Assembly: GCA_942492115.1 (NCBI GenBank)
Contig: CALODL010000002.1
Coordinates: forward strand, 242,803 to 306,802
Length of the DNA: 64,000 nucleotides
Origin: an uncultured Planctomycetota bacterium
GTDB taxonomy: Bacteria > Planctomycetota > Phycisphaerae > UBA1845 > CAIVHJ01
Reading direction: 5' to 3'
Shown: positions 729 through 27,849 of the stretch, piece by piece
How the letters are laid out: each line of letters begins with the position of its first letter
How positions within the stretch are numbered: position 1 is the first letter of the stretch
Position numbers and translations under genes: made by a program
The notes under the pieces: model-generated
What the model was told of the DNA's origin: nothing
The model's input: the letters and a program-made list of their open reading frames with translations, nothing else
Databases searched by the model: none

Positions 729-2375
729 TTACGTGGTCGCAGTTCCCACTGGGGTTCCTGGGACACCGGGGGCCGCGAGCGGAGTGGGCTCAACGATCGC
801 CGCCGGTGCGACCATCGGTGCAGGTGAGACCGCGGCGGCCGCCGGTGGTTCCGCTTCCACAGCCTGAATGGGCGGCGGTGGTACAGGTGACGCCGGCGGC
901 ATCGACTCACCCCCGTCACCGCCGTGGTCCGCGGGGCCATCCCCGTCATCGTAGGTTTCGCTTCGCAGGCCGAGCTGCTCCTCGAGTTCGTTGACGAGGC
1001 TGCGCAGCCGGTGGCGTTTTTCTCCACCCGGCGTATTCCATTTTACCTCGTCATCCTTGGCGATGACTTTGTTCAATTTCGCACACGCGAGGATGACGGT
1101 GGAATGGTTCTTGTTGCCCATGCACCGTCCGATTTCCGGGAAGCTCATGTTCGTGTGCTTCCGGGCGAGCAGCATGGCAATACCACGCGACAAGGCGATC
1201 GTTCGGGTTTTCCGCGACGTGTGCAGATCGGCCGGGGTCAGCCCGAAGTAGATCGACGACACGCTCTCGATATCACTGAGCTTGACGATCGGTGCGGTCT
1301 TGCTCAGGTGTTCCTGTAGCGCCTGCTGAGCGAGGGCCAGCGTGATCGGCTGCCGTGCGATCGAAGCGAACGCACACAGCTTCAACAGGGCTCCCTCGAG
1401 TTCACGCGCATTCGAATTGATGTTGCCCGCAACGTATTCGATGACCTCGGTCGGGATTTCCCGCTTCATCTGCGAGACGCGGTGCGTCAGGATGCGCACC
1501 CGCTCTTCGAAGCTGGGCGGGTCGATCTTGACGACCATACCGGCAACGAAGCGGTTGACCAGCGATTCACTGAGGTTGCCAATCAATTTGGGATGGGCAT
1601 CGGAGGCCATGATGACCTGTTTGCCCGCCGCGTCGATCGCATTGTACGTGTGCAGGAACTCCTCCTGTGTGCCTTTCTTGTTGGCCAGGAAGTGGATGTC
1701 ATCGATGACCAGGCAATCCACGTTGCGGAAGTGATGCCGGAAGGCGTCACGATTTCCACTTTTGATGGCGTAGATGAACTGGTTGGTGAATTCCTCCCCC
1801 GTCACATAAATGACCTGGAGGTTGGGATGGTGCTCGGCGAGACCGTTGCACGCTGCCTGGAGCAGGTGGGTCTTGCCCAGTCCACACCCACCGTGAATGA
1901 ACAGTGGGTTGAACTGCGTGCCAGGCTTCTCGATTACGCTTTTCGCGCAACCGTAGGCCAGCTTGTTGCTCGACCCGACTACGAAATCGAGCAAACGTCC
2001 GCGCAGCGCCTTTTTCTGCTGCATCGGCCCCTTGCGGCGCGTTTCACGCGCGACACGCTCAGGGTTGTTGTTCATGAATGTGACTTGCGAGTCCAGCTGG
2101 CGCTTCTTGAGATTCTTGGCCAGCGAGGGGTCGATTGAGAAAGCCAGCCTGAGATCTTCACCACTGATCTCTTTGGCTGCTTCCGCGATCGTATCAGCAA
2201 AGTGATTTTCGATCCAAGCGCCTATGAACATGTTGGGGACCCCGACCTTGAGGTAACCATCAGTCATATGGAACTGAGTCGCGTTGCGAAACCAGATCTT
2301 GTAGCGTTGAGGACCTACCTTCTCTGCAATCCGTTCTTCGAGTTGGCGCGCAAAATCCGTGCCGACAGACACCAT
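729..2375 (-). CDS. dnaA: chromosomal replication initiator DnaA, with a 78-aa Pro/Ala/acidic C-terminal extension
   Basis: 548-aa ORF. AAA+ Walker A GGCGLGKTHLL and Walker B CLVIDDIHF are present. The C-terminal DnaA-box-binding domain is recognisable (RGIAMLLARKHTNMSFPEIGRCMGNKNHSTVILAC). Confidence 0.95.
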   Translation of the reverse strand: MVSVGTDFARQLEERIAEKVGPQRYKIWFRNATQFHMTDGYLKVGVPNMFIGAWIENHFADTIAEAAKEISGEDLRLAFSIDPSLAKNLKKRQLDSQVTFMNNNPERVARETRRKGPMQQKKALRGRLLDFVVGSSNKLAYGCAKSVIEKPGTQFNPLFIHGGCGLGKTHLLQAACNGLAEHHPNLQVIYVTGEEFTNQFIYAIKSGNRDAFRHHFRNVDCLVIDDIHFLANKKGTQEEFLHTYNAIDAAGKQVIMASDAHPKLIGNLSESLVNRFVAGMVVKIDPPSFEERVRILTHRVSQMKREIPTEVIEYVAGNINSNARELEGALLKLCAFASIARQPITLALAQQALQEHLSKTAPIVKLSDIESVSSIYFGLTPADLHTSRKTRTIALSRGIAMLLARKHTNMSFPEIGRCMGNKNHSTVILACAKLNKVIAKDDEVKWNTPGGEKRHRLRSLVNELEEQLGLRSETYDDGDGPADHGGDGGESMPPASPVPPPPIQAVEAEPPAAAAVSPAPMVAPAAIVEPTPLAAPGVPGTPVGTATT

Positions 2376-6949: not shown

Positions 6950-8203
6950 GTGTCATCTTCCCGTGACAAACAACTCGCTGATCTCAATACGCTGATTGAC
7001 GTGTCGCGTCAGCTTGGGGCCGAGACCGAACTCGACCCGCTGCTCAAGAGCATCGAGCAGGCGGCGCTCAAAGTCCTCGATTGCGCGCGTGCGACCGTGT
7101 TCCTGTACGATCGTGCGGCGAAGGAACTGTACAGCCAGGTGGCAACGGGCGTCGAACGCATCAGCTTCCCGGCCGACCGCGGAATTGCCGGCGAGGCTGC
7201 ACAGACCCGTAAGACCATCAATGTCTCGGATGCCTACGCCGACAGTCGGTTCAATCCCGCCGTGGACAAGGCAACGGGATTCACGACCCGCAACTTGCTG
7301 AGCATTGCTCTGGAAGGCTCTGACAATCAACTCATGGGCGTCTTGCAGGTCTTGAACAAGACCGCCGGCTCGTTCACCACCGAAGATGAACGGCTGGCCG
7401 GTACGTTGAGCGCCCTCGCGGGCGTGGCCATCCAGCGCCAGCTGCTGCTCGAGGAGTATGCCGAGAAACAGCGGATCGAGCGCGACCTCGATCTGGCACG
7501 TGAGATTCAGCGCGGGTATCTGCCCGATACCGATCCGGACGTCGACGGCTTCGATATCGCCGGTTGGAACCGGCCCGCTCTCGAGACCGGTGGGGACGCG
7601 TATGACTACATGGATGTCGACGGTCAGGTCGGTCTGTTCATCGCAGATGCAACTGGACACGGTGTCGGTCCGGCCCTGATGGTCGCCGAGTGCCGGGCCT
7701 ACCTGCGCTCGGTGGCGGCGACGACCTCAGATGTCGTCCGCATCATCTCAACCACCAACCGGTTGCTCGCTGACGATCTCAGCGAAGGACGCTTCGTGAC
7801 CGTGTGCCTTGGTGTGCTGAATCGCGACACCGCCGAGCTGACCTACCTCAGTGCCGGGCAGGGCCCGATGGTGCAGTACATTGCAGCTGAGGACCGCTTT
7901 GTCGAGATTTCCGCCGATACGGTACCGATGGGCATTCTGGACGAGCTGCCGCCACTCCAACCCAAGATCATCGGGTTGGCCCCTGGCGACCTCTTTGTCA
8001 TGCTGACCGACGGATTCATGGAGTGGGCCCGACCGGACCGTGAACAATTCGGCTACGACCGCGTTTGCGAGGTCCTCCGCTTGAACCAGGACAAGCCGTC
8101 CAGTGACATCATTCGCATTCTGTATGACCAGGTTGTCACGTTTGCTTGCGGGGTTGCCCAAAACGATGACTTGACCGCCATTGTGATCCGGCGCGAGAAA
8201 TAG
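6950..8203 (+). CDS. GAF domain-containing PP2C/SpoIIE-family serine phosphatase (RsbU-like)
   Basis: N-terminal GAF (GIAGEAAQTRKTINVSDAYADSRFN...LMGVLQVLNK). C-terminal SpoIIE/PP2C (GGDAYDY, ADATGHGVGPAL, LTDGFME, QNDDLTAIVIRR). Confidence 0.85.
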   Translation: MSSSRDKQLADLNTLIDVSRQLGAETELDPLLKSIEQAALKVLDCARATVFLYDRAAKELYSQVATGVERISFPADRGIAGEAAQTRKTINVSDAYADSRFNPAVDKATGFTTRNLLSIALEGSDNQLMGVLQVLNKTAGSFTTEDERLAGTLSALAGVAIQRQLLLEEYAEKQRIERDLDLAREIQRGYLPDTDPDVDGFDIAGWNRPALETGGDAYDYMDVDGQVGLFIADATGHGVGPALMVAECRAYLRSVAATTSDVVRIISTTNRLLADDLSEGRFVTVCLGVLNRDTAELTYLSAGQGPMVQYIAAEDRFVEISADTVPMGILDELPPLQPKIIGLAPGDLFVMLTDGFMEWARPDREQFGYDRVCEVLRLNQDKPSSDIIRILYDQVVTFACGVAQNDDLTAIVIRREK

Positions 8204-8221
8204 CGCCCCGTCCTCGCGTTT

Positions 8222-8764
8222 TCAGGCCATACCCTCTTCCAGATCAACGCCCAGCCCATCCGCAATCCTGTTGATATAGTTGAAATACGCTGCTACCTGG
8301 GCGATGTCGTGGATGGCCAGGTCGCTGAATCCGCTGCGTCTTAGAGTATCGACGTCGTCGCGGGTCATGGCCCCGGGCGTACGCGTCAGTTTGACAGCGT
8401 AGTCGAGGGCAGCGCGGGTCTGGGCGTCGACCGCGGCGGTGGTGTAGTCGCTCTTGATGGCTTCGACCATCGCGTCATCATCGATCTCCGACCGGAGATC
8501 CTCAGCATGGGCTTCGGTTCAGTAATAGCAATCATTGGTGCGTGAGACGACGGTGGCGATCATCTCGCGGAGGCTGCGGGGGACCGGTGATTCTGCGATT
8601 GTCGTGGCTTGATACAGGCCCATGCTGGCGCGCAGGCTCCGAGCATTGAGGCTTTGAATCTTGAGAATCTGATAGACCTTGCCCGCACGCCGACGGGCGT
8701 CAGCGTAGATCTTGGCCAGCGGGCCATCCGCTGCGTCATCACTGACGGTTTTGATCCATGCCAT
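8222..8764 (-). CDS. AhpD/carboxymuconolactone-decarboxylase family peroxidase-related protein, probable selenoprotein (UGA = Sec at 8521-8519)
   Basis: ORFs 8519-8764 and 8222-8470 are in the same frame, separated only by one TGA. Read through, the sequence is ...VVSRTNDCYY-U-TEAHAEDL..., which is the family signature CxxCxxxH with the 2nd Cys replaced by UGA. The combined product is 180 aa, matching family size. A hairpin follows the UGA. Confidence 0.7.
8483..8500 (-). other. candidate bacterial SECIS hairpin
   Basis: mRNA-sense GAUCUCC-GGUC-GGAGAUC (7-bp stem, GGUC apical loop) starting 18 nt after the UGA. Spacing and the G/U-containing loop resemble E. coli-type SECIS elements. Confidence 0.55.
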
Positions 8765-8945
8765 CGTTGCGTACCTGCCCGGAGTTGTAAGATTTTGCGA
8801 TTTTTTGTTGCGCGATTGCGTGTGAGCTCAGTCTTTATGGATGAACACCGGCACGCGGTTGGGCGACGTGACCCCCAGCGGACTGAGCCAGAAAGAGCTT
8901 CCGACACACAAGCTCCTTCCTTCCCTGCCTCGGGGAACTTTGGCC

Positions 8946-8975
8946 GGGCCTGGATCCCTCAGGGGATCCAGGCCC
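8946..8975 (-). terminator. 13-bp perfect stem-loop between the S9 peptidase and the AhpD-like gene (terminator/attenuator candidate)
   Basis: GGGCCTGGATCCC-tcag-GGGATCCAGGCCC, 11 nt after the peptidase stop. No clear U-tract, so its function is uncertain. Confidence 0.4.
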
Positions 8976-8986
8976 AACTCCGTAGC

Positions 8987-11125
<2,139 letters not shown>

Positions 11126-11469
11126 GAAAACACCTCTTCTCGGGTACGGATGACTGAATATTGGGCTCACTTGCACACTCGGTGCGCTGCCTCGACGGCG
11201 GAATCCACGGACTGCGGTCTCGGGTCAGGGGGATCCTCAACAGTATCTTGTGGTGACCCCGTCAGTGACAAGCATGCGGTGTATCGTATCGAGGCCATCA
11301 ACGGCGTCAAACCTGTGTGTTGAACCTGCTCGTGCACGCCGATTACGGCGTGTGATTCTGTCTTCATAGTCGATTGCGTGCAGACCGCCACGATCGGGAT
11401 TGCCGTATCTTTGCGCCGGCGACCAGCCATTCGATTCGAGCGCATGCGCGGTGTACAATACTTTGACAC

Positions 11470-13865: not shown

Positions 13866-14072
13866 GCCCGTTCGTCTTGGCGCAAGTCCATGATTCGGCT
13901 AACTTGTTCCGTCTTGACACGCATCCAGCTTATCCGCTCAACGCGTTGATCCGTTGCCTCGTGACGATCACAGCGAGAATATTGACGGACACGCCTCGAT
14001 CTCCCCGGTCATGGGATGGGTTTGGCTCCATGTCGTGTCGGTCCTCCGGGCTCAACAGGAAGGGGATTGCTC

Positions 14073-15107
14073 ATGATCCGATCGTTGTTTGCCATCGCAT
14101 TGCTTTGTGCGCCCGCTGCCGGGCAGGACACACCCGAGTCGGCCGACAAAGTGGCCGATTTGTCTGACGCGCTGCATCCGCGCGTCAAGATGACCACGTC
14201 GATGGGTGACATCATTCTGCTGCTCGACGCCGACAAGGCGCCGGAGACGGTCCTGAATTTTGTCAAATATGCGCGTGACGGTCACTACGACAACACGATT
14301 TTCCATCGCGTGATCAACGGTTTCATGATCCAGGGTGGCGGTTTCACCGGAGACCTGGTTCAGAAGCCCACCCGTGCCGGCATCAAGAATGAGTGGCGCA
14401 ATGGTCTGCAGAATGCCCGGGGCACGATTGCCATGGCCCGTCTCGGCGGTAAGCCCGATTCTGCCACCGCGCAGTTCTTCATCAACGTCGTGGGCAACAG
14501 CAACCTCGATCGACCACAACAGGACGGCGCGGCCTATGCGGTGTTCGGCAAGGTCGTAGACGGACTCGAGGTTGTTGACGCCATCAAGGTCGTGGCCACC
14601 GAGAAAAAGGGCGCCCATGCCCATGTCCCGGTCGAGCCGGTGGTCATCAAGTCGGTGACTGTCGTCAGTGACTTCGACGAGGCGGTCGTGCGTCAGACGC
14701 TGGTCGACGCCGCCGCGCGCGAGGCGGCGTTGTTCGACGCTACGGTCGCGGAGATCGAGGAGGAGACGCACAAGAGATTCGAGAAAACCGAAAGTGGTCT
14801 TCTGTATATGGTCATTGAAGAGGGGACCGGACCGTCACCGACACTCGATGACCGCGTCGAAGTGCACTACACCGGATATTTCCTCAATGGCCAGAAATTC
14901 CACAGTTCGCACGATGGCAACCAGCCACTGTCCACGAAAGTCACGGGTTTGATAAAAGGCTGGCAGGAGGGGTTGGTCAAAATGAAGGTGGGCGGAAAGA
15001 GCAAGCTCATCATCCCTTACCACCTGGCCTATGGTGAACGTGGTCGTTCGGGGATTCCTCCCAAGTCGGACCTGCATTTCGATGTCGAGTTATTGTCCAT
15101 CGAGTGA
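14073..15107 (+). CDS. bifunctional peptidyl-prolyl cis-trans isomerase: cyclophilin-type domain fused to FKBP-type domain, secreted
   Basis: Signal peptide MIRSLFAIALLCAPAAGQ. Cyclophilin motifs FHRVINGFMIQGGGF and ATAQFFIN. C-terminal FKBP motifs VEVHYTGYFLNGQKFHSS, GWQEGLVKMKVGGKSKLIIPYHLAYGERG and DLHFDVELLSI. Confidence 0.85.
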   Translation: MIRSLFAIALLCAPAAGQDTPESADKVADLSDALHPRVKMTTSMGDIILLLDADKAPETVLNFVKYARDGHYDNTIFHRVINGFMIQGGGFTGDLVQKPTRAGIKNEWRNGLQNARGTIAMARLGGKPDSATAQFFINVVGNSNLDRPQQDGAAYAVFGKVVDGLEVVDAIKVVATEKKGAHAHVPVEPVVIKSVTVVSDFDEAVVRQTLVDAAAREAALFDATVAEIEEETHKRFEKTESGLLYMVIEEGTGPSPTLDDRVEVHYTGYFLNGQKFHSSHDGNQPLSTKVTGLIKGWQEGLVKMKVGGKSKLIIPYHLAYGERGRSGIPPKSDLHFDVELLSIE

Positions 15108-15223
15108 TGCGCCGGACACACCGGATGCGGGGCTGCTGTCGCGTGTGGCCGCACAGAGGTTTGTTCCGCTCGGTCTGGGGGTTGCTTAACGCTCTGCTGG
15201 CGGGCGTTGTATAATACACGGTC

Positions 15224-17542
15224 GTGAGCAGGCGCCGGATCAAAACGACCTCATCATCACCAGGCCCACAAGGTCGCTGCGTGTCATTGCCGGTCATGGC
15301 GGGGGCAGGCCCAATCAAGACTTCGCGGTCCAGCCGCTGGCGGGCGGCCGTCCTGATCGGCATTCATGTGCTGTTCATCGGACACCTCGTGCACTGGCGC
15401 CTGTCGGAATCAACGGTTGCACCCCTCGAACCATCCGAAGCCATGGCCTTCTCCAAGGAAGGTTTGATCAACGCCGGGTTCGTGCTCTTCGCTATCGCCA
15501 TCCTTTCGACGCTCATCTTCGGTCGGTTCTTTTGCGGATGGGGTTGTCACGTCGTTGCCCTCCAGGACCTTTCACGGTGGCTCCTCCACAGGGTTGGCAT
15601 TCGTCCCAAACCCCTCCGTTCCCGTGTGTTGATGCTCGTACCGCTGGTCGCCTTCGTATACATGTTTCTGTGTCCGCTCATTTACAGAGTGCTCAAGGAT
15701 CACCATGTCACGGGGGGGACGGCCCTGACGACGACGCAGTTCTGGGCTACGTTTCCACAGTGGTTCATCGCCTTGTTGACATTTTTCGCCTGTGGCTTCG
15801 TGATCGTCTACATGCTCGGCGCAAAGGGATTTTGTACGTATGCCTGTCCTTACGGCGGGATCTTCGGTGTTGTCGAGCAACTGGCCCCATGGCGCATCCG
15901 GGTGACGGATGCCTGCGAGGGGTGCGGTCACTGCACTGCGGTGTGCACGTCCAACGTCCGCGTGCACCAGGAGGTCCGCGAGCATGGCATGGTCGTCGAT
16001 CCTGGTTGCATGAAGTGCCTGGATTGTGTCAGTGTGTGCCCAAACGAGGCTCTCTACGTCGGTTTCGGACGCCCTACAGTCGGAGTGTCCGCGGCGGCTT
16101 CCGCACGGTCGTCGTGGGGCCAACGCATCGTGTCGGGGGCTGTGACTGCCGCTTTCCTGCTTGCCGCGCTGGCGGTCTTCAACTGGAACGATTTGTCCGT
16201 TGCGTGGTTGCGCGACAACATCGGGTTCGTCTGCGGACTTGCGGGAGGGTCGTGGTTACTGATCATGTTGCTGCCGTCCAAGTCCGGGCGCAGCCGGGCC
16301 GACTACACCGTCACCGAAGAAATCCTGATCGGGACGCTGTTTCTGGCCGGCGTAGTTGCATTTCGCGGGACCTATGTCGTCGTGCCCGGAGGACTCGACA
16401 TGGGGCTTGCGGGTGAGATCCCATTTCTGTGTGCCCTGGGCCTGGCTGCGATCGCCGCGTACCTTGGCATCAATGGCCTGCGGCTGTTGTACAAGCGCAA
16501 TCTCACGTTGCATCGTCTGACCGTCAAGCGGGCTGGTCGCGTGACGCTCGGAGGCTGGATCTTTGCCGTATTCATGGTCGCTGGTACCGTGATGTCGGTG
16601 CACGCCGCATCCGTTCAGGTTCATGTCCACGCTATGCGCCGGGCTTCGGGAGCGCTGCAGCACATGCAGGCGATGTGGTTCAATCCGAATCGGGAGTTGT
16701 TGAGTGCGGATCATAAGGAAGCCATCGCTGGCGGCCTGACCCATGCCCGTGCGCTGCCGCGCTGGGCTCGAGTCGGCCATCCTGAACGCGAGCGCATGGC
16801 AGCGTGGTATGAGCTGATGAGCGGGAACGGGTCGGCTTTTGAAACGCGTGTTCATGGGCTGCTTGAACTGCGTCCGGGTGCCGCTCTGTTGCGTCGTGAG
16901 CTGGCCGAGTACCTCGTCGCCGAGGGGCGCTATGATGAAGCCGTTGCGCAATTCGAGTGCCTCATGGACGGCCAGCCAACGGTTGAATCCTATCTGCGAT
17001 TCATCGAGCTGCTTGCCGGGCTGGGTCGTTTTGAGCACGCTGTGCACGTCGGTGAAACAGGAATTGTCCAGCATCCCGGTAATGCTTCGTTGGAGTATAG
17101 CGCAGCCCTCGCAGCCCAGATGGCCGGAGATGTGGAGCGCGCGTTGAGCGGCTACCAGGAAGCCATACGGTTGCAGCCCGATTCTATCGAGGCTCGGGAA
17201 AACTACGCTGGAGCCCTGTGTGAAGCCCGCCGTTTCGATGCGTGCATCGCTGAGTTTGCGGCACTACTCGAAGCGCACGGTGACGATGCCGCGTCGCATT
17301 TCAAGAAGGCGATCGCGCATCTCAACGTTCAACAGTACGCAGAGGCCGAAACGCACTTTGCCCGGGCTTCGGCCCTGGCGCCGGAAGACCCACGACCGTA
17401 CATGGCCCTGGCTGATCTGGCCCGTTTGCGCGGTGATGAACTGCAGGCCGCCGAGTACATGCTGCAGGCGAAACGGATCCTCGAGCTCGAACAGGCGGAA
17501 CAGCCGAGTCAGGCGTTCGACAGGACATCGGGCGGCAACTGA
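15224..17542 (+). CDS. NapH/MauN-like 4Fe-4S membrane protein fused to a C-terminal TPR domain
   Basis: Motifs FFCGWGCH and FCTYACPYGG, plus two ferredoxin motifs (CEGCGHCTAVCTS and CMKCLDCVSVCPN). Further TM helices follow, then about 250 aa of TPR-like repeats. The start is uncertain (GTG 15224 or ATG 15296). Confidence 0.7.
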   Translation: MSRRRIKTTSSSPGPQGRCVSLPVMAGAGPIKTSRSSRWRAAVLIGIHVLFIGHLVHWRLSESTVAPLEPSEAMAFSKEGLINAGFVLFAIAILSTLIFGRFFCGWGCHVVALQDLSRWLLHRVGIRPKPLRSRVLMLVPLVAFVYMFLCPLIYRVLKDHHVTGGTALTTTQFWATFPQWFIALLTFFACGFVIVYMLGAKGFCTYACPYGGIFGVVEQLAPWRIRVTDACEGCGHCTAVCTSNVRVHQEVREHGMVVDPGCMKCLDCVSVCPNEALYVGFGRPTVGVSAAASARSSWGQRIVSGAVTAAFLLAALAVFNWNDLSVAWLRDNIGFVCGLAGGSWLLIMLLPSKSGRSRADYTVTEEILIGTLFLAGVVAFRGTYVVVPGGLDMGLAGEIPFLCALGLAAIAAYLGINGLRLLYKRNLTLHRLTVKRAGRVTLGGWIFAVFMVAGTVMSVHAASVQVHVHAMRRASGALQHMQAMWFNPNRELLSADHKEAIAGGLTHARALPRWARVGHPERERMAAWYELMSGNGSAFETRVHGLLELRPGAALLRRELAEYLVAEGRYDEAVAQFECLMDGQPTVESYLRFIELLAGLGRFEHAVHVGETGIVQHPGNASLEYSAALAAQMAGDVERALSGYQEAIRLQPDSIEARENYAGALCEARRFDACIAEFAALLEAHGDDAASHFKKAIAHLNVQQYAEAETHFARASALAPEDPRPYMALADLARLRGDELQAAEYMLQAKRILELEQAEQPSQAFDRTSGGN

Positions 17543-17604: not shown

Positions 17605-18390
17605 TTAGAAACCGATGGTGTCGATGCTTCCCGAGCGTATCCAGGCTGTACGGCTGGCATCCGCGAGTTGAATGCGCGTCCAGTCCCCACGTCGTTCAAC
17701 GATCCGCGCTTCCGTACCCGCCGGGAGTGGATTGGAGAATACCGGCCGAGCGCCCGGGGCATCGGCCGACAGGGCCGGTTCACCTCCCCGCGTCACAATG
17801 ACGCCCTCCCGGTTGCCGCGGTCAGGTTCGAAAACAACGGATCCCAGGAGGCCCAACCATACGATCCCACACAGTATGGCGCCGTTACGCAGCAGCGTTT
17901 TTCTCCAGCGATATGCGGCGGCGTACATCCCCACACCGAAAGCGAAAAAGAGCGCCGCGAGTGTATTGCGTTCGCCGAGTGCCAACGAGCGATGCCAGAA
18001 GAAGAATGTATCCATAGCAGAACTGGGCTGTGGGCGCGGCACCCATGCGGGCAGAAGGCTGCGTGTGTGTTGTAGATTCTGAGTCGCGCGCGGATGGTCT
18101 GGGTCGATGCGCAGCGCGCGACGGTAGGCCAACACGGCTTGTCCGAGTTCCTCGGACTGTAAGGCGGCGTTGCCCGCATCGGCGTAGAGATCCGCGCTGT
18201 GCACACCCTCGCTGATGATGCGATCAAAGAGCAACTTGGACCGCTGAAACTGGGCAAGCCGGGTGTCGCGGTCCGCCTCGTTCATGGCAACCTGATAGGT
18301 TCGGCGAGCGCGGAACAGTGTTCGCCCCAACCTGGAATTATTGTTCAATGGTGCCCCAAGGAGCGCAAGCGTCAAGAACAGAACAGTCAC
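17605..18390 (-). CDS. BatE-like protein (TPR repeats + C-terminal SH3b-like domain)
   Basis: Last gene of the Bat-type operon. Contains a TPR segment (ADAGNAALQSEELGQAVLAYRRALRIDPDHPRA), TM helices and a C-terminal SH3-like end (GTEARIVERRGDWTRIQLADASRTAWIRSGSI). Confidence 0.6.
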   Translation of the reverse strand: MTVLFLTLALLGAPLNNNSRLGRTLFRARRTYQVAMNEADRDTRLAQFQRSKLLFDRIISEGVHSADLYADAGNAALQSEELGQAVLAYRRALRIDPDHPRATQNLQHTRSLLPAWVPRPQPSSAMDTFFFWHRSLALGERNTLAALFFAFGVGMYAAAYRWRKTLLRNGAILCGIVWLGLLGSVVFEPDRGNREGVIVTRGGEPALSADAPGARPVFSNPLPAGTEARIVERRGDWTRIQLADASRTAWIRSGSIDTIGF

Positions 18391-20179
18391 GAGGCCACCT
18401 CCCGAATGCGGCGGGCAGCGTCACGAGCGCGATCGACCAGCCCATTGTCGGTGCCCACTGTTGCGTCGTCCGGCGCATAGACCACGACTTCGCATTCCGC
18501 CAGCAAGTCGTCGATTGCCGCCGACCGTGCCGCTGGAACCTCCGCCAGCATGGAGCGCAGTGCCGCCGCAACTTCCGCGGCTGCTTGGCGGGGGGGTGCG
18601 TGCCCGCTTCGGCCAGGCGTCCTGCGGCGGCAGCGAGCGTCTTGCGGCGTCGCAGAATCGCCGGATCGATATCCGCACGATGTCGCAGAAAGATGGCCAT
18701 GGCCAGGGTCAGCAGCGGAACGCCGTAGAGTCCGACCAGCACGATGCGGTTGCCCCAGGGTTGATGGTGCGCGGCCAGTAGTTCGGTTCCCGTGGCCAGG
18801 CTGAGGTCCGCGCCGGTCAATGTAAAGGTCGGGCGCTCGGTCGGCGTTGCGGGCGCGGAGGGGCCGGCGGTCGGCTCGGCAGCCGTACGGTCGTTGACGC
18901 CAACGGCGTCGCGCGCCGTGACCACCTCGCCTTCGCGGACAGCCAGCGCGATGGGGCGCGATCGAGTGGTCTGGTAGGTGCCGCTATCTGCGTCGAACCA
19001 GCTGTAGGCGATGCCTGGAATCTCGTCGACGTCGGCGTTGCGTACACGGACCTTGGTCGTAAACACCTTGCTGCCGTCCTCCTGCACGATACCGGCTGTC
19101 GTTCCGGTGGGCAGACTGAACAGTTCAGGTGACAGTCCGTTGTCGGCCTCGAGATCCGGCAGGCCGGCGGCCTCGAGATTGCCCTCGCCGTGAAGGGTGA
19201 TGGTCAGTGTGATGGGGTCGCCGACCTGAACGACCGTACGGTCTGCGGTCACATCTATGGAGAATCCCTTGCCAACGGCGCCAGCGAAGCTTTGCGGTTG
19301 ACCCGCCCGAGGCATCTCACGAACAACGAGCGTACGGGGTAGATCACGGGCGCGTACCTTCTCGTACTGCGGGCGACGGCGTGGAAAGAGGCTCGAGCGA
19401 TCGCGCGTCCACCCGACGATGCGTCCCGCAGTGATACTGGCGGTCCCGAGATCGAATTCACCGGTTTGCAAAGGGACCATTACACGCTCCGCCGAGAGCA
19501 CGATGTATTGCTGGCCGTCAAAATCCCGGCGGCCGATGTCGACCTTGAGTTGGATATCGCCGGCATCACTTGGAAAGGTCAGTGCATTGTCTCCACGTTC
19601 AGCGATCTCGTCGATGAAATTGAAGGCCGAACCCTGAAAGAACAATGGAATCGAGAAATCGTAACTTGGTTCGCTGAGCATGCTCTCACGCTCGGACTCG
19701 AGCACCCACCATTCCACTCGAATCGGGACGCGCTGGCCGACGTAGACGGGTTTGTCCGGCAAGACCACGCGCAAACGCATGCCGTCGAACAGCTCGACGT
19801 CTTTGACGACGATGCTCGTCGTGCGACTCGTGACGTCCGTGCCGTTCTGGCTGACGGTGAACGGTCCAATGCGGTAACGACCCGGTTCATCGGCAATGAA
19901 CGTATAGCGGAATGATTGTGTCGTGGTTACGGTCTTACGACCATTGATGATAGTGATGTTCTGACCGGTTCCGTAGATACCCTCGTAGGTCAGCGTCCCG
20001 CGCTGTGGTTGGGGCGCTGTGCACGTCGGAGCGGGATTCGCATCAAAACCAGATACCGCGATCTCAATGACGATGGGGACACCCGTGTAGTAGGGCGCGC
20101 GCGACATCCGCAGGTCGGCCTGCTGGCCGAATGCCGTCGTGACACAGAAGAGTAATGCCCATGGAGCTGCGGCGCGCAT
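18338..20179 (-). CDS. BatD-like oxygen-tolerance protein
   Basis: 613 aa. Signal peptide, repeated beta-sandwich segments (GRYRIGPFTVSQNGTDVTS...) and a late TM helix (IVLVGLYGVPLLTLAMAIFL). Position in the operon is after the VWA proteins. Confidence 0.65.
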   Translation of the reverse strand: MRAAAPWALLFCVTTAFGQQADLRMSRAPYYTGVPIVIEIAVSGFDANPAPTCTAPQPQRGTLTYEGIYGTGQNITIINGRKTVTTTQSFRYTFIADEPGRYRIGPFTVSQNGTDVTSRTTSIVVKDVELFDGMRLRVVLPDKPVYVGQRVPIRVEWWVLESERESMLSEPSYDFSIPLFFQGSAFNFIDEIAERGDNALTFPSDAGDIQLKVDIGRRDFDGQQYIVLSAERVMVPLQTGEFDLGTASITAGRIVGWTRDRSSLFPRRRPQYEKVRARDLPRTLVVREMPRAGQPQSFAGAVGKGFSIDVTADRTVVQVGDPITLTITLHGEGNLEAAGLPDLEADNGLSPELFSLPTGTTAGIVQEDGSKVFTTKVRVRNADVDEIPGIAYSWFDADSGTYQTTRSRPIALAVREGEVVTARDAVGVNDRTAAEPTAGPSAPATPTERPTFTLTGADLSLATGTELLAAHHQPWGNRIVLVGLYGVPLLTLAMAIFLRHRADIDPAILRRRKTLAAAAGRLAEAGTHPPAKQPRKLRRHCAPCWRRFQRHGRRQSTTCWRNAKSWSMRRTTQQWAPTMGWSIALVTLPAAFGRWPRDCSVLDACAPWGTIEQ

Positions 20180-20181
20180 GA

Positions 20182-23100
20182 TTACCAGTCCTTCTCCACG
20201 GGATCATATCGCCGACTCTGTTTCTGATCACGTTCCGCACGGCGCTCGGCTTCACGATCGCGCAGTCCCTGGAGCAACTGTGCGAGGTTTTGCTGGGCCT
20301 GCTGGTCCTGTTGCTCCTCGGGCTCCTCACCCTGTTGTTGCTGTTGTTGTTGCTGGTTCTGCTGGTTCTGCTGGTCCTGCTGTTGCTGCTGCTGCGGGGG
20401 CTGTAACAACTGGATGGCCTCAACCAGCTGTTCAAGGGCCGTACGTTGGTGTGTTCCAATAGCATCGAATTCCGGCGTCACTGCAGTCAGGTCCACGCTG
20501 GCTTCGTCCATCTCGCCGGCAGCCGAGTAGACCAGCTCAGCTGCGCGGGCAAATTGTTCCTGCATTTGACGCAGCTGTTCCGGGTCCGGGGCTGCGCCGC
20601 CGCCTTGTTGAGCCTGGGGGTCAGCTGTCGATTGCTCTGCAAGCGCCGCGGCGATCTGATTCGAAATGGCTGACAGTCGTTCCTGGCGCTCCGCGAGTGG
20701 TGCGACGACGGTCTCTTGCGCTGCGGTCAGCGCGGCCGTTTCCGTGGTATCATCGTACAGTTCACCTTGACGCCGTGCCGTTTCCTTGAGGTGTTCGATG
20801 AGTGTGAAGAACAACTGGCGCAGTTGCTCGATCAGCTCGATCGAGCGGTCGACTCCCGCATTCGCGCCCTCCATGAGGGCGGGGATGTCCTCTTCGTCGA
20901 GCGTTGTGGTCTGTTCGAGCAGGGTGCGCGTTGCCTCCATGTGCTGCAGGGCCTGATCGGTCAATGTAACAGCCATCTCGAGGCGCTGGCGCTCGGCTTG
21001 ATCGGCCGACGGTTCGGCGGGAGCGGATGCAGGATCGGGTTCTGCGGCTGCCGGCAATTCGGCAAGGCTGTCCGACAGCATGGTCTTGAGTCGCTCGGCC
21101 CGTTGGATGTCCTTGTCTTGAAGCGGCAGTCCGCTGGCGATACGGTCAGCCAGTGGCACCTCGATCTCAGCTTCACCGGGCGCAGCCAACACCTGTTGAA
21201 GTTGGACCTGTGCGGCGTAGAGCACTTCGATGAGGCCTTTGATGTCGAGGAAGTATTCGCGTGCGGCGATGAGTGCTTCAAGACCTTCCACCTGGCTGGT
21301 GACCGCGTCACCAAGCTGTTCGGAACCGAGATAGGTGGCCGCCGCGCGCTCTGCGGATGCGGCAAGCTGCAGCGCAGGCAGTGCTTCGGTGATTTGATCC
21401 AGGAACTTCTGAGTGTCGGGATCGATCTCGGGAGTGGCCGCCGCGGGGTCCTCGGCGTGCTTGACGCCGCCTTCGAGCCGCGCAGTAAGTTCTTCGGTCC
21501 GATCGGCGAGGTCCTCCTGGGCGTCGAGCACATACTTGTTATCGAGCCACGTGGGCAGTGCTGGTCGCGCCTCAACGGAGGTGTCGGCCAGGGAGGCCCG
21601 CTGAGAAGCCTCGAGTCGGGCAGTTTCCTGCAGCGTACCGTTGGCATCGTTCATGATGGCGGTCAGAATGCTGATGGGGTCACGCAGCTGATCGCGGGCC
21701 CGCTTCAATTCCCGCAAAGCAGTGGCCGCACGACGACTGGCGCGCGCGCTGCGTTTTTGACGCAATTGACGCCGGGTTTGCCCGAGGCGCTCGCTGCTCC
21801 GATGGAGGTAGTGCAGCAAAGCGGTCAACTGCGCGGAGCGGACCTGCTCTTCGGGGGTTCTTTCTTCTTCGCTCTTGGCCGTGATGCTGTCCTGCTCGGC
21901 GCCGGCATCCTGGACGACGCCGGCAGTGTCCGACAGGATGTGCCGTTCGGCGCTGGCCAGGCCACGGTATTCGTCGCGCAGTAGCTCGCTGTCGCCATCC
22001 AATGAAGCGGCGCGTTCGTTCAATGCACGGATGTGCACCAGGAATGTTCGCTGTCTGTCAATGAGCGCGTCAATGCGCTTCGCCAATTCTTCATCACTTT
22101 GATCGCGCAACGAATCGGCAAGGGCCAACGCTTTGCGCAACACGACTTCGAGGTTGTGTCGTGGAGCCTCTTCTTCCGGGCGCAGGCGTACAGCATCGCG
22201 GAACCAGTCTGCAGCCGTTTGCAGGGCGACGAGGGCTTCCTCGGGATTGTCGTCGAGCAGCGTATCGTGCTTCTTGACGTACACCCAAGCCAAACTGTAG
22301 GTCGCGCGGTAGCGACACGGTCCGTCGGCACCCGCTGCGCGACGTGCTGCGGTGAGAATGCGTTCTGCGTCGTCGAGCGCGCCATCTTCGAGATGCTTGC
22401 GGCCCAGGTTGTACGCCGTGCGCGGATCCTCGGGAATGTCGGCCGGCTCAGGTCTTGCGGTTGTCGCGGCCGGATCCTCTTCTCCCTCAGGCACTGTCGG
22501 AGACACCGCCGGTGGTGATGGAGGAGGCGACTGCACCGCTTCGGCCCGCGGGCATACGGCGGCCATGAGCACGACAAGCAACACGTGGTGCGGGGCGCGG
22601 GCGCGCCCACTGGTGATACCAACCGCCGCGACAAGGACGATCAATGCAATCAGGATGGCCCACTGGAAGCCGTCCTGGTGCACCAGCCGACCGCGCCCGT
22701 CGAGTTGGCCGCGGGTCAGTGGGGCGAGCAGGTCGCGGTAGATCGAGTCGAGATCGAGAACCCCCGTCCCAGCCGGGATGTAAGCCCCTTCGGTTTCGAG
22801 AGCGATGTCGCGCAGCGTGTCACCATCGAGACGCGAGATCACCGGGGTGCCATTGCCGTCAGTCAGTCGTTGGCGCGCACCGCTCTGAGGATCCGTGACC
22901 ATGACTTCGCTGCCTTCTTCAGAACCAAAGCCCACGGTGAAGATCTTGACGCCGCGTTCGGCGGCCTTCTTCGCCGCCTCGACGGGAAAGGAGTCGTGGT
23001 CCTCTCCGTCAGTGATCAGCAGTATGGCGCGCGAAACGTCTCCTGCGCCGCCGAAGCCATTCACCGCTTGCTGGATGGGCGCTGCCAGATTGGTTCCGCC

Positions 23101-23607
23101 ACGGCTGACGCTACGTGGCCCGGCTTCTTCGAGCACCATGCGCAGAAAACCGAAATCGGGCGTCAACGGGCACAGCACGGTCGCCTTGCCGGCGAAAGCG
23201 ACCAGGCCGACGTGGTCGCCGCGCAAGTAGCTCAGCAGGTCGAGGATCTCGGCTTTCGCCCGGTCGAGGCGCGTGGGCGTGGCATCCTCGGCCAGCATCG
23301 ACTTGGAGACATCGAGGCAGATCATCAGTTCCGTGCCTGCGCGCGGCGTGGCTTCGTAGGTGGCGCCCCAGCGCGGCTGGGTCAGGGCTGCGAGTAACAG
23401 CATGCAGGTCACGCCCAGAAGCACGATGCGGCCGAGTCGACGGCTGCGCGAAGAGCGTGTGACCAGGCGCGCTTGCATGGTGCGCGAGCAGAACCGCTCG
23501 AGGATGTTCGAACCCCGCCGTTCACACGCGAGCAGGATGGCGACAAAGACCACGACTGCCCACACACCATGCAGCCACGCCGGCGTGGCCAGGTGAAACC
23601 CGCTCAT
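20182..23607 (-). CDS. BatB/BatC-like VWA + TPR protein with a very long coiled-coil extension and a Gln-rich C-terminus
   Basis: N-terminal double TM, then a VWA domain with MIDAS motif (LDVSKSM...). A TM helix, a TPR-like segment and about 650 aa of Ala/Glu/Leu/Gln-rich helical sequence follow. 1141 aa, versus about 340 aa expected for a canonical BatB. Start overlaps the batA stop (ATGA). Confidence 0.7.
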   Translation of the reverse strand: MSGFHLATPAWLHGVWAVVVFVAILLACERRGSNILERFCSRTMQARLVTRSSRSRRLGRIVLLGVTCMLLLAALTQPRWGATYEATPRAGTELMICLDVSKSMLAEDATPTRLDRAKAEILDLLSYLRGDHVGLVAFAGKATVLCPLTPDFGFLRMVLEEAGPRSVSRGGTNLAAPIQQAVNGFGGAGDVSRAILLITDGEDHDSFPVEAAKKAAERGVKIFTVGFGSEEGSEVMVTDPQSGARQRLTDGNGTPVISRLDGDTLRDIALETEGAYIPAGTGVLDLDSIYRDLLAPLTRGQLDGRGRLVHQDGFQWAILIALIVLVAAVGITSGRARAPHHVLLVVLMAAVCPRAEAVQSPPPSPPAVSPTVPEGEEDPAATTARPEPADIPEDPRTAYNLGRKHLEDGALDDAERILTAARRAAGADGPCRYRATYSLAWVYVKKHDTLLDDNPEEALVALQTAADWFRDAVRLRPEEEAPRHNLEVVLRKALALADSLRDQSDEELAKRIDALIDRQRTFLVHIRALNERAASLDGDSELLRDEYRGLASAERHILSDTAGVVQDAGAEQDSITAKSEEERTPEEQVRSAQLTALLHYLHRSSERLGQTRRQLRQKRSARASRRAATALRELKRARDQLRDPISILTAIMNDANGTLQETARLEASQRASLADTSVEARPALPTWLDNKYVLDAQEDLADRTEELTARLEGGVKHAEDPAAATPEIDPDTQKFLDQITEALPALQLAASAERAAATYLGSEQLGDAVTSQVEGLEALIAAREYFLDIKGLIEVLYAAQVQLQQVLAAPGEAEIEVPLADRIASGLPLQDKDIQRAERLKTMLSDSLAELPAAAEPDPASAPAEPSADQAERQRLEMAVTLTDQALQHMEATRTLLEQTTTLDEEDIPALMEGANAGVDRSIELIEQLRQLFFTLIEHLKETARRQGELYDDTTETAALTAAQETVVAPLAERQERLSAISNQIAAALAEQSTADPQAQQGGGAAPDPEQLRQMQEQFARAAELVYSAAGEMDEASVDLTAVTPEFDAIGTHQRTALEQLVEAIQLLQPPQQQQQQDQQNQQNQQQQQQQQGEEPEEQQDQQAQQNLAQLLQGLRDREAERRAERDQKQSRRYDPVEKDW
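20287..20394 (-). repeat. CAG/CAA-rich tract encoding a poly-Gln segment
   Basis: Encodes PPQQQQQQDQQNQQNQQQQQQQQGEEPEEQQDQQAQQ near the C-terminus of the BatB-like protein. Confidence 0.9.
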
Positions 23608-24626
23608 GGCAGCCTCCGGAGATAGGTCGCCGATGTCAGTCCGGCGAAGGTAATGCAGGTGAGCGCGGCCAGGACGAACGGCATGAAGTATTCTGTGTAA
23701 TTGAGGTAGCGCACTTCGACAATCTCCGTTCGTTCGAGTTCGTCGATCTCGGCGACGATGTCGCGGAGGGCGTCACCGTCGGTCGCCCGGTAGTACCTGC
23801 CGCCGGTGCGGCTTGCGATCTGTTTGAGCGTGTCTTCGTCGATCTCGACGCGCGTTCGCTGCATACGTTTGCGACCGAACATGTCTTCGCCCTCGACGAG
23901 TGCAAAGCCAGTGGTGCCCGCGCCGATCGTATAGACCTTGATGTTGTGAGCCACGGCGAGCTCAGCGGCTTGCGCCGGCGGGATTTCGCCCGCATTGCTC
24001 ACTCCATCCGTCAACAGGATCGCCACCCGTGAGTGGGCCTCGTGTTCGCGCAATCGTTCGACGGCCAATGCCAACCCTTCGCCCATGGCGGTGTAGTTGC
24101 CCTCGTCACCCTCGCCAATCTCGAGCTGGTCCATGATGGCCAACAGGTTGAGGTGATCGAGGGTCAGCGGGCACAGCCCGTCGGCATATTTTGCAAAGCT
24201 GACCAACCCGATGAGGTCGTCCGGTCTGCCTGTGTAGTCCCCCTTGCCGGCGACGAAATCGCGGAAGACCTGTTTGACCGCATCGAGCCGGGTGCTGGGC
24301 TCGTCCTCGAGCTGGAGATCGAGGGCGCGCATCGAACCCGACCTGTCGACCACCATGCAGACTGCTATGCCCTCGCGTTTCACCCGGGTCGTCGAATCGC
24401 CGAGCCGTGGGCGGGCCATGGCGATGGACATTGCTACCGTGGCCAGAGCCAGCAGCAGCGGGGGGACGCGGGTCATGCGGGCTTTCAATGAACGTGGGGC
24501 GCGCTCGACGATACCGAGAGTCGAGTAGGTCACCAGCGCGGGTGTCCGGACGGCGAGCCAGTAGACGACGGGCGCGGCCAAAGCAGCCAACAGGAACCAT
24601 GGGTCGCGCATGCTCCATTCAGACAT
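23604..24626 (-). CDS. BatA-like VWA domain-containing membrane protein
   Basis: N-terminal TM pair, VWA with MIDAS motif (VVDRSGSM...), a conserved ILLTDGVSNAG and a C-terminal TM. The start is chosen at the ATG with a GGGAG SD 7 nt upstream. Confidence 0.8.
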   Translation of the reverse strand: MSEWSMRDPWFLLAALAAPVVYWLAVRTPALVTYSTLGIVERAPRSLKARMTRVPPLLLALATVAMSIAMARPRLGDSTTRVKREGIAVCMVVDRSGSMRALDLQLEDEPSTRLDAVKQVFRDFVAGKGDYTGRPDDLIGLVSFAKYADGLCPLTLDHLNLLAIMDQLEIGEGDEGNYTAMGEGLALAVERLREHEAHSRVAILLTDGVSNAGEIPPAQAAELAVAHNIKVYTIGAGTTGFALVEGEDMFGRKRMQRTRVEIDEDTLKQIASRTGGRYYRATDGDALRDIVAEIDELERTEIVEVRYLNYTEYFMPFVLAALTCITFAGLTSATYLRRLP

Positions 24627-25647
24627 GGGCGGTCTCCCGCGACGGCCCCGATGTGTTGACCTCTTCATCGATCAACGGGGCATCGGTTCTGGTATCTTCG
24701 AGGAAGCGCTTGGCGCTGTTGATGGATTGCTCGATCTCATTGTCTCCGGGGTGGATGTGGGCAAACTTTACGAGGTCCGCGCCGCGCAGGAAATCGCGCA
24801 GCAGCTGGCGGTGCTCAATCGAGAAGTCCGGCGATGTTCCGGCAGCCTCGAGGAACTCCTCAGTAGTGAACTCGGGCGCCCTGACGTCGTAGCGATTCTC
24901 GATGTAACGGCGAATGATCCGGGTCAACGTCACGAAGAATGTGTCAATGGCGTCGTTCTGCGGGAGGCCACCGGACAACAGGGCATCCAGTTCCGCACGA
25001 GCAATTTCGTATGCGTTCCGTCGCCGCGCCCGCTGGCGCCAGCGGTTGAATGCGCGGATGATAAACGGTGCCGCGACCAGTGCTGCGGCCACCAGTGCGA
25101 TCGTTACAGGCCACCGCGCTGCGGAGGCTGTACTCCGTGGCGGCAGTGGTTCGAGCAGGCCGATCAGTTCCGGCGCCGCGCCGGCGGGCAACACCGATTG
25201 GACGGTGAAGTCCAGCCGCTCCGTGAGCAGCTCGTACGCGTCTTCGTCCTCGGGTGCCGCCTGCCGGCCGGCGCGGTGGTCGACGAACTCCACGAGGATC
25301 GACGGGATACTCTGTTCGCCTGACAGATGAGGCTGCAAGGTATAGCGTTGAACGGCAACGGTGCGGTTGCGGTCGTCGAGCTTCTCGGGCACCGGTGTGA
25401 AGTTGATGATGCTGAAACGATCGAGGTCGGCGCCGAAGTCGGGCATGATCAGCTCGACACCCGGTTCGGCGGTCACTTCCAGAGTGAAATGCACGGGGTC
25501 GCCGATCAGCGGTTCGGCCGGTTCCACCCTTACGATCGCCGTGACCGGACCCACTTCGGTGGTTTTCTCGAGCCCAGAACCAAGTACGGGGTATCCACCC
25601 GCACACGCTGCCAGGTACGCCGCACGAATCCAGACGCTGCGGTTCAT
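24619..25647 (-). CDS. Bat-operon membrane protein (BatD-like N-terminal beta-sandwich + DUF4381-like C-terminal domain)
   Basis: Signal/lipobox-like N-terminus, one central TM (WPVTIALVAAALVAAPFII), and a C-terminal ...TTEEFLE...LLRDFLRGADLVKFA... pattern typical of DUF4381. Start overlaps the DUF58 stop (ATGA). Confidence 0.5.
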   Translation of the reverse strand: MNRSVWIRAAYLAACAGGYPVLGSGLEKTTEVGPVTAIVRVEPAEPLIGDPVHFTLEVTAEPGVELIMPDFGADLDRFSIINFTPVPEKLDDRNRTVAVQRYTLQPHLSGEQSIPSILVEFVDHRAGRQAAPEDEDAYELLTERLDFTVQSVLPAGAAPELIGLLEPLPPRSTASAARWPVTIALVAAALVAAPFIIRAFNRWRQRARRRNAYEIARAELDALLSGGLPQNDAIDTFFVTLTRIIRRYIENRYDVRAPEFTTEEFLEAAGTSPDFSIEHRQLLRDFLRGADLVKFAHIHPGDNEIEQSINSAKRFLEDTRTDAPLIDEEVNTSGPSRETAHV

Positions 25648-26598
25648 CGGGCGCCCCTCCGCTCACGCATGCGGAAGAACCGGACCAGTGGATCGACCAC
25701 TGATTTGGCGGCATCGATGTGGATGAAGTCGATCCCGGAGGCGGTGAAGGAGGAACGCAGGGCAGCGACACGCTCGTGGGCCATGCGGGCGAATTCGCGA
25801 CGAAATGCGGCCGAACTGGTATCGACCAATCGTTGTGATCCGGTTTCGGCGTCCGCGAGGTTGATCAGTCCGACATCTTCGATGTCCAGCTCGCGCGGAT
25901 CGGTGATCAACACCGCGATCACGTCATGTTTGCGATTGGCCATACGCATCGCCTCGACGTACCCGTCGTCGAGGAAGTCGCTGACCACAAACGTCACCGT
26001 TTTTCGAGAAGTAACGGACATGAGGAATTCCATGGCGCCGGAAATGGATGTTGCTTCGCGCTGACCACGCAGACGGCGATTACCGAGCGCTCTCCACCAG
26101 CCGCCGAGGCGTTTCCGGGGGGCGCTCCGGTGTGTCGAGGCCATGGGCCAGAACTTCGCGCACGACACGCAGGGCGTGTTTCTGACCTTTGCGCGGCGGG
26201 ATGAAGCCTTCGATCTCGCCATGGAACAGTGTCAACCCGACCTTGTCATCGTTGCGGATGGCCGAGAAAGCCAGCAGTGCGCAGAACTCCGCTGCGGCCT
26301 CGCGTTTCGATCGCGTTGTTGAGCCGAAGTCCTGCGACGCAGAGACGTCAGCCATGAGCATCAGCGTCAGTTGTCGTTCTTCAACGTACCGTTTGATGTA
26401 AGGTTCGCCGACCCGCGCGGTGACGTTCCAGTCGATGCTGCGCACGTCATCGCCCGGCACATAGGGGCGGACCTCGTCGAATTCCATGCCCCGGCCTTTG
26501 AATACTGATACATATTCGCCCGCCAGTACGTCGGCCACATGGCGGCCGGTACGGACCTGCACCTCTCGTACACGTCTGATGATTTCCTTGGCGATCAT
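25644..26598 (-). pseudogene. DUF58 (MoxR-associated VWA-like) gene interrupted by a frameshift
   Basis: The N-terminal 172 aa (FKGRGMEFDEVRPYVPGDDVRSIDWNVTAR..., MADVSASQ) sit in one frame (26598-26080). The conserved C-terminal part (...TVTFVVSDFLDDGY...DVIAVLITDPRE...) sits in the +1 frame (26222-25644). A 6-nt G/C homopolymer at 26117-26122 lies in the overlap. Confidence 0.7.
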
Positions 26599-26659
26599 TG
26601 CTTCAAACCGGTATGAGATTTTACATTACGACTGCACTACGCCGGAGATGTGACCATGC

Positions 26660-27649: not shown

Positions 27650-27849
27650 TGCACCGTTCACTCTCTGTCTGGTTGTTGATCCACAAGGGTTTACGTGTGC
27701 TTGAAAGGTCCCAGAAAATAGCACACGCGCCTTCCAGACGCAAGCCGGCGGCGGATCCTGTCAAACAGGTCCCAGGGTCGGTCGCGGCGTACTCCCATAA
27801 CGACAGGCCGCTGACACTGCTCCCACGGGGATCGTATGTTTGCACCGGC

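Follow-up and report, generated by a model that had tools for sequence, protein, structure and literature searches.

A probable selenocysteine codon, followed by a SECIS-type hairpin, in an unannotated AhpD-like gene of the TIGR01926 family

What can be read on the minus strand between positions 8222 and 8764 of the window, that is, of the whole 64-kb stretch of DNA analysed here? Two open reading frames, 8519-8764 (81 aa) and 8222-8470 (82 aa), share one frame on this strand, and a reading from Met1 (8764) to the terminal TGA meets, in the sequence as in its translation, a single stop, the TGA at 8519-8521. This is the arrangement which an earlier note, made from the letters of the window, had described as two same-frame minus-strand ORFs split by one TGA, and the read-through peptide quoted there is recovered exactly. 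The half of the gene downstream of the TGA contains no further stops or frameshifts; the codon that follows the UGA is ACC, and the first in-frame ATG is reached 17 codons downstream (8468-8470), with the codon of His86 situated between the UGA and this ATG. The neighbours are genes for a GAF-SpoIIE phosphatase (6950-8203, plus strand) and an S9 peptidase (8987-11176, minus strand), a neighbourhood that is not conserved but differs among the orthologs, and a scan of 8100-9100 for promoters and terminators returned nothing useful. The features of the locus, and those of the orthologous loci at which genes of the selenocysteine (Sec) machinery were found, are collected in Table 1.

Table 1. Features of the AhpD-like gene in the window, and Sec-machinery genes close to four of its orthologs.
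Feature	Position	Strand	Remarks
AhpD-like (TIGR01926) gene, predicted selenoprotein, complete	8222-8764	-	180 sense codons including predicted Sec82
Start codon ATG of the AhpD-like gene	8762-8764	-	
Terminal stop TGA of the AhpD-like gene	8222-8224	-	
Glu67 codon	8564-8566	-	AhpD proton relay (E-x11-C); invariant in alignment A1; corresponds to MtAhpD Glu118 (PMC3141380)
Cys79 codon TGC	8528-8530	-	First Cys of the C-x-x-U redox motif; invariant in alignment A1
In-frame UGA, codon 82, predicted Sec codon	8519-8521	-	TGA column in homologs; aligns with the second Cys of CxxC
His86 codon	8507-8509	-	AhpD proton relay (U-x3-H); invariant in alignment A1; corresponds to MtAhpD His137 (PMC3141380)
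SECIS-type hairpin	8483-8500	-	5' arm 8494-8500 GAUCUCC; apical loop 8490-8493 GGUC; 3' arm 8483-8489 GGAGAUC
L045, Phycisphaerales MAG	selB 14041-15921; selA 15981-17294; tRNA-Sec 17430-17526		tRNA-Sec (anticodon UCA) <10 kb from the gene; about 3.5 kb off
L048, Actinomycetes MAG			tRNA-Sec <10 kb from the gene; gene abuts selB (TIGR00475, 349 bits) and selA (TIGR00474, 533 bits)
L055, Actinomycetes MAG			tRNA-Sec <10 kb from the gene; selA and selB homologs adjacent
L065, Thermoleophilia MAG			selA and selB homologs adjacent

A frame split by a TGA carries little weight in itself. A mechanical scan of the window, which is GC-rich, turned up 150 cases in which two stop-free stretches, each 50 codons long or longer, follow one another in the same frame with a single TGA between them, so that such a frame alone is not significant by chance; as candidates for other TGA-split genes in the window, these 150 pairs were too noisy to be used. 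The gene rises above chance through its homology to either side of the TGA and through the comparative evidence.

For the family searches, Cys was substituted at codon 82 of the read-through product. Over residues 2-173 of its 180, the protein matches TIGR01926, 'peroxidase-related enzyme', with 140.3 bits (cutoff 81.8), and it matches the Pfam family CMD (PF02627) with 40.8 bits (cutoff 23; 2.2e-10), bearing out the assignment to the AhpD/CMD family in the earlier note. The score against the ahpD equivalog TIGR00777 remains below the cutoff (21.1 versus 191.95 bits), and among the window genes scanned with Pfam (about 40 ORFs) none encodes AhpC or a peroxiredoxin; we therefore speak of an AhpD-like protein rather than of AhpD proper. 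The nearest solved structures, PDB 3c1l and 2pfx (E about 1e-26), are single chains that run colinear with both halves of the window protein, covering residues 14-171, and carry CYYC or CFYC at the site. The signature of the window protein reads E67-x11-C79-x-Y81-[U82]-x3-H86 and, with the preceding Asn, N77-x-C79-x-Y81-U82-x3-H86. Its residues E67, C79, Y81, U82 and H86 fall on the positions of Glu118, Cys130, His132, Cys133 and His137 in Mycobacterium tuberculosis AhpD (MtAhpD), and the counterparts in Pseudomonas aeruginosa PA0269 are Glu36, Cys48, Tyr50, Cys51 and His55 (PMC3141380); at the position of MtAhpD His132 the window protein thus has a tyrosine, Tyr81, as PA0269 has Tyr50 (PMC3141380).

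In alignment A1, which includes 11 Cys-containing homologs, codon 82 coincides with the second Cys of CxxC. The column holds Cys in these Cys-containing homologs as well as in 3c1l and 2pfx, the one exception being a homolog with Gly (P0090), and the alignment with Cys homologs therefore places the UGA in the second-Cys column, where the earlier note had put it. The closest relatives in the databases are proteins of about 100 aa that start just past the position of codon 82. At the DNA level, all nine of the nearest distinct orthologs (57-71% amino-acid identity) have an ORF of 81 codons, a TGA at codon 82 and some 100 codons more, and their terminal stops vary between TGA, TAG and TAA; the nearest of all come from Planctomycetes-labelled MAGs, with about 70% identity, and the 81-aa fragment of the window has no identical entry among the recorded proteins. 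A second 81-aa ORF noticed at one of the loci (L012) proved to be unrelated. A scan of GTDB with one genome per species, in which the best match was 56% identical, added 80 further loci, and in these and the earlier loci together the column is TGA in 88 of 98 cases, a Cys codon (TGC or TGT) in 10 and TAA or TAG in none. A metagenome scan for which Cys forms served as seeds recovered 73 TGA forms and a single Cys form, the query itself. After deduplication, genomes and metagenomes together yield 153 TGA forms and nine Cys forms, with neither TAA nor TAG at the site, and the TGA forms are spread over more than 10 phyla, which include Planctomycetota, Acidobacteriota, Chloroflexota, Myxococcota, Actinomycetota, Gemmatimonadota, Marinimicrobia and Bacillota.

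The public record of these orthologs reflects the difficulty of the locus for automatic annotation. As the earlier note had anticipated, gene callers split them in public sets, into fragments of 81 aa and about 100 aa, and some records have the TGA translated as Trp: among the 33 best database homologs listed as 'full-length', 27 have Trp at the Sec site. For one of them (P0009), the DNA (L097) was verified to have TGA where the protein record has Trp, so that the Trp residues at the site are TGA codons that were translated under another genetic code.

Could the UGA be a true stop after all, separating two polypeptides of 81 aa and about 82-98 aa that assemble afterwards? Several orthologs have GTG, ATG or TTG directly after the TGA, which is where the callers start a second gene. 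The window gene, however, has ACC there, and a product started at the ATG at 8470 would be without the invariant His86, since the codon of this residue lies upstream of that ATG. The codon after the TGA also varies widely among the orthologs (ACC, ACG, GTG, ATC, ATT, CTG and CGG). Two chains would moreover divide the catalytic residues, with E67 and C79 on one and H86 on the other, against the single-chain architecture of the solved homologs, and they would leave unexplained both a stop that is always TGA and the hairpin that follows it. We consider a split gene hardly credible.

A different objection is that a Cys gene was inactivated, in the organism or through a sequencing error, by the conversion of TGC or TGT to TGA, leaving the downstream half untranslated. 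One third-position change suffices to turn a Cys codon into TGA, gene callers see two fragments at the locus, and the 64-kb window shows no Sec machinery for the source organism. Against this stand a TGA shared by 153 distinct homologs in more than 10 phyla, the intact downstream half, and a conserved hairpin with compensatory changes, described below. The pattern of substitution points in the same direction: dN/dS between the window and its orthologs is 0.09-0.37 in both halves, and comparisons among the orthologs themselves, where dS is not saturated, give about 0.15-0.2 upstream and downstream of the TGA alike; both halves are under purifying selection. A pseudogene or sequencing error is extremely unlikely, and the conservation data have largely refuted it already.

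Downstream of the UGA, the transcript is predicted to fold into a hairpin: the stem begins after a spacer of 18 nt and the loop, once the 7 nt of the 5' arm are added, 25 nt from the UGA. The stem consists of seven Watson-Crick pairs and is present in both the MFE and the centroid structures; the hairpin alone has a folding energy of -9.6 kcal/mol, and the 44-nt stretch from the UGA onwards one of -13.4 kcal/mol. The published bSECIS model calls for an apical loop of 3-9 nt, an upper stem of 4-16 bp, at least one G in the first two loop positions (G, then G or U), a distance of 16-37 nt between UGA and loop, and an MFE of at most -7.5 kcal/mol (PMC13188914 Fig. 2). With a 4-nt GGUC loop, 7 bp, GG at the start of the loop, 25 nt and -9.6 kcal/mol, the element in the window lies within every one of these constraints, and run against this bacterial SECIS model it passes (PMC13188914). 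Sequence, folding and bSECIS constraints thus agree with the earlier description of a SECIS-like 7-bp stem with a GGUC loop, 18 nt downstream of the UGA. Rfam at its gathering thresholds reported no SECIS or other family in the whole window and, with E values up to 10, gave for 8400-8600 only chance snoRNA-like matches, a null result that is uninformative, since Rfam holds no generic bacterial SECIS model.

Taken as a single structure, this hairpin is not statistically unusual: its folding z-score is only -1.27, with 20 of 200 shuffled sequences folding as well, and hairpins that pass the bSECIS constraints follow 10.7% of the other codon positions in the same genes (26,157 positions). It is the comparison between homologs that distinguishes it. 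The Cys-form control set stayed at nine sequences, as the metagenome scan yielded no further Cys form, and within-gene background positions and synonymous-codon tests took the place of a larger set. In a strict bSECIS search for perfect stems, 112 of the 153 TGA forms (73%) scored positive, as against none of the nine Cys forms and the background of 10.7%. In one Cys form (L095), the DLRSE peptide of the stem region is kept but is written with non-pairing codons, GAC CUU CGG UCU GAG GGA, which leave only a weak 5-bp remnant. The hairpin occurs in two registers, with the loop at +24/25 nt in the subgroup of the window gene and at +16/17 nt in the HHG and AHGEDLR subgroups.

Covariation was assessed in a gapless alignment (A2) of 58 distinct TGA-form sequences. 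In the helix, columns 30-37 with 42-49, 80.8% of the cells are paired, versus 36-47% for versions of the helix slid by 1-3 columns. Six of the eight pairs show double-sided changes, with 30-49, 33-46, 34-45 and 36-43 among the pairs that have changed on both sides, and the observed covariation score was reached by none of 500 shuffles. Compensatory changes can be followed in individual sequences, as in GAU...AUC versus GAC...GUC, or in the stems GGACCUG...CAGGUCC (L083) and UGAGUUG...CAACUCA (L092). A second signal comes from synonymous codons in the 39 genes that encode the conserved stem peptide D-L-R-x-E-V/I. Here, the Leu of the stem is encoded by CUC in 37 of 39 genes, compared with 36% gene-wide, its Glu by GAG in all 39, compared with 68% gene-wide, and the codon for Val or Ile ends in C or U in 38. 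Synonymous codons in the stem are biased toward pairing; the nominal p-values for this bias, 1e-14 to 1e-4, are overstated, as related sequences were treated as independent.

Is the amino acid inserted at this UGA selenocysteine? No selA, selB or selD was found in the 64-kb window, either with Pfam (about 40 ORFs) or by tblastn with the SelA and SelB of one of the Actinomycetes loci (L048), and ARAGORN reported no tRNA genes there, tRNA-Sec included. Together with the Trp residues in the database homologs, this lack of visible Sec machinery for the source speaks for read-through without Sec, be it under a reassigned code with TGA as Trp or Gly, or by hairpin-stimulated insertion of a near-cognate Trp or Cys. 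The Trp residues, however, have turned out to be TGA in the DNA where this was verified (P0009/L097), and the homologs without TGA carry the redox-centre Cys at the site, not Trp. In the window, TGA is the commonest ordinary stop, ending 19 of the 35 long ORFs as well as the AhpD-like gene itself, which excludes a reassigned genetic code. Relatives, moreover, have tRNA-Sec, selA and selB beside the gene (Table 1). Read-through without Sec is thus very unlikely.

We conclude that 8222-8764 is one intact gene of the AhpD-like family, encoding a predicted thiol/selenol oxidoreductase of 180 residues in which UGA82 is very probably recoded to Sec, and we infer that Sec is actually inserted in the source organism. 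There is a slim chance that this organism lacks a canonical Sec system, and that the UGA is decoded in another way, with the hairpin stimulating the insertion of Cys or Trp, for example, or with a Sec machinery diverged beyond recognition. More probable than such a non-canonical reading is that the gene belongs to a subclade of TIGR01926, spread over more than 10 phyla, that would be almost exclusively Sec-containing, with about 94% TGA in the samples.

How does the gene compare with known systems? AhpD-like proteins (COG2128, CxxU) were recognised as a new selenoprotein family in the Sargasso Sea data, with 27 sequences (Zhang, Fomenko & Gladyshev 2005, PMC1088965), and became, with 299 Sec sequences, the fourth most abundant family in GOS (Zhang & Gladyshev 2008, PMC2398784); the names used in these two papers are 'AhpD-like protein' and 'AhpD-like 1' (PMC1088965, PMC2398784). 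A 2026 review has the entry 'AhpD-like protein, TIGR01926, CxxU' (PMC13188914), and AhpD-like can be browsed as a family in BSepDB (PMC13326102); that CxxU proteins of this kind are an established bacterial selenoprotein family, as the earlier note had stated, is therefore confirmed by the literature (PMC1088965, PMC2398784, PMC13188914). The window gene shares with this family the TIGR01926 assignment, a CxxU motif with Sec in second place, a downstream SECIS with a G-containing loop and a single domain of about 180 aa. It differs in nothing essential, except that the copy in the window and its nearest orthologs are unannotated or split in public records. As all family-defining features that can be tested in the sequence were found, the gene is a new member, so far unannotated, of an already known family of selenoproteins.

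Among the proteins of known structure, the closest relatives are 3c1l (Mlr4105), 2pfx and the AhpD 6k40 (E = 1e-26 to 1e-21), which run colinear with the window protein over residues 14-172 and share the motif N-x-C-x-Y-C-x-x-H but are Cys forms, with CYYC or CFYC and with neither UGA nor SECIS. M. tuberculosis AhpD (PDB 1gu9/1knc), which reduces AhpC, has the E-x11-C-x-x-C-x3-H signature and the helical core of CMD/AhpD in common with the window protein. The similarity is remote, however (E = 0.0065), and in MtAhpD the motif lies in the C-terminal half, has a His between the cysteines and contains Cys, not Sec; MtAhpD also acts together with AhpC, whereas the window gene has no adjacent gene for AhpC or a peroxiredoxin. 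For the RNA element, the archetype is the SECIS of Escherichia coli fdhF, worked out in the Boeck laboratory, a hairpin within the coding sequence 3' of the UGA, with a small GGUC/GU loop that is recognised by SelB. The hairpin of the window differs from it in stem sequence and spacing and fits the generic bSECIS consensus (PMC13188914), its binding by SelB being a prediction.

Following the established bacterial pathway, a ribosome with the UGA in its A site would encounter the downstream hairpin with SelB-GTP-Sec-tRNA(Sec) predicted to be bound to it, and SelB would deliver Sec in place of release factor 2. In the product, the proton-relay residues Glu67, Tyr81 and His86 would flank a C79-x-x-U82 redox centre, and Sec would stand where AhpD has its exposed, attacking Cys. 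In MtAhpD, Cys130 lies partly buried, and it is the second Cys, Cys133, that is exposed and cross-links to Cys61 of AhpC (PMC6626918, citing Bryk 2002 and Koshkin 2004). With Cys133 as the attacking Cys, Sec would stand in the attacking position, and of the earlier claim that the UGA replaces the second, 'resolving' Cys, the second-Cys part stands on the alignment and on 3c1l and 2pfx, but the label 'resolving' is probably the wrong way round (PMC6626918). In one study of B. thailandensis AhpD, the first Cys turned out to matter more (PMC6626918), so that the assignment of the attacking Cys is not universal. The attacking position is the usual place of Sec in redox enzymes. In its catalytic cycle, the enzyme most likely alternates between a selenol/thiol and a selenenylsulfide state, and it may reduce a peroxiredoxin partner or act on hydroperoxides directly.

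What does the gene add? It leaves the knowledge of recoding as it was, because descriptions of the family, its motif and its type of SECIS go back to 2005. Its main value lies in annotation, since public protein sets list it and its orthologs either as a pair of truncated 'peroxidase-related' fragments or as full-length proteins with a false Trp in the active site. There are hints, from its position beside selB-selA-selC in some Actinomycetota and Phycisphaerales, that the subclade may be a principal client by which the Sec trait is kept in these lineages. For the source organism, recognising the selenoprotein marks it as a probable user of selenium and would add one redox enzyme to its antioxidant repertoire.

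How does the Sec position of the AhpD-like family appear in public records? Among the 33 best full-length matches from public metagenome protein sets (P0004-P0034), 27 show Trp there. As the DNA of one homologous protein, P0009, reads TGA at this codon (locus L097, 2244-2246), gene callers evidently applied a code with TGA as Trp to short contigs. In NCBI and JGI records, the AhpD-like gene is instead cut into an 81-aa and a roughly 100-aa fragment. Homologs with TGA at the Sec column (TGA forms) are present not only in MAGs but also in genomes of cultured Bacillaceae (L063, L067); the latter are candidates for experimental confirmation.

Across the homologous loci L015-L178, the SECIS occurs in two alternative registers. 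In the AH..DLRxEV subgroup the loop lies 24-25 nt past the UGA; in the HHG/AHGEDLR subgroups the distance is 16-17 nt. The same CUCCG segment forms the core of both registers, which implies SECIS turnover inside one orthologous family. The closest homolog with a Cys codon at this column, P0001 (L095, 930-2889), is located in an ArsR-MerT/HMA-CMD gene cluster, suggesting a mercury or metal context for this Cys form. At the site of the SECIS in Sec forms, L095 has a weak 5-bp remnant, CCUUC-GGUCU-GAGGG, which may be a relic of Sec-to-Cys conversion.

Several other genes of the window were recorded. An S9 prolyl-oligopeptidase-family ORF of 729 aa (8987-11176, minus strand) has an unusual C-terminal poly-Asp tail. 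A GAT/GAC repeat at about 8990-9050 encodes this tail, in which over 20 Asp follow one another without a break (...SDSDND[D]n stop). The minus-strand gene run at 18338-27724, comprising a MoxR AAA ATPase, DUF58, two VWA proteins and BatD, resembles a Bat/aerotolerance-type operon. For the giant protein of a minus-strand ORF of 2032 aa (48196-54294), no Pfam domain scored above threshold, and the sole match was a sub-threshold DUF7901. Given dnaA at 729-2375 (minus strand; domains Bac_DnaA, DnaA_N and Bac_DnaA_C), the chromosomal replication origin is probably next to the window. Across most of the window the cumulative GC skew runs upward, with no sustained reversal.

Sel-gene regions near TGA-form AhpD-like genes, and TGA forms of cultured Bacillaceae
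Feature	Locus	Position	Content
Sel-gene region	L045	14041-17526	selB, selA, tRNA-Sec
Sel-gene region	L048	6087-13557	selB, selA, tRNA-Sec
Sel-gene region	L055	6921-13008	selB, selA, tRNA-Sec
Sel-gene region	L065	10727-13806	selB, selA
TGA forms with GGC-loop hairpin	L063, L067		Pseudalkalibacillus sp., Bacillus sp. Marseille-Q3570

In three Actinomycetes/Thermoleophilia MAGs (L048, L055, L065), selB and selA directly adjoin the TGA-form gene, and in a Phycisphaerales MAG (L045) selB, selA and tRNA-Sec lie about 3.5 kb from it; tRNA-Sec accompanies selB/selA in three loci (L045, L048, L055). This proximity suggests a functional or evolutionary tie between the AhpD-like selenoprotein and the Sec trait.
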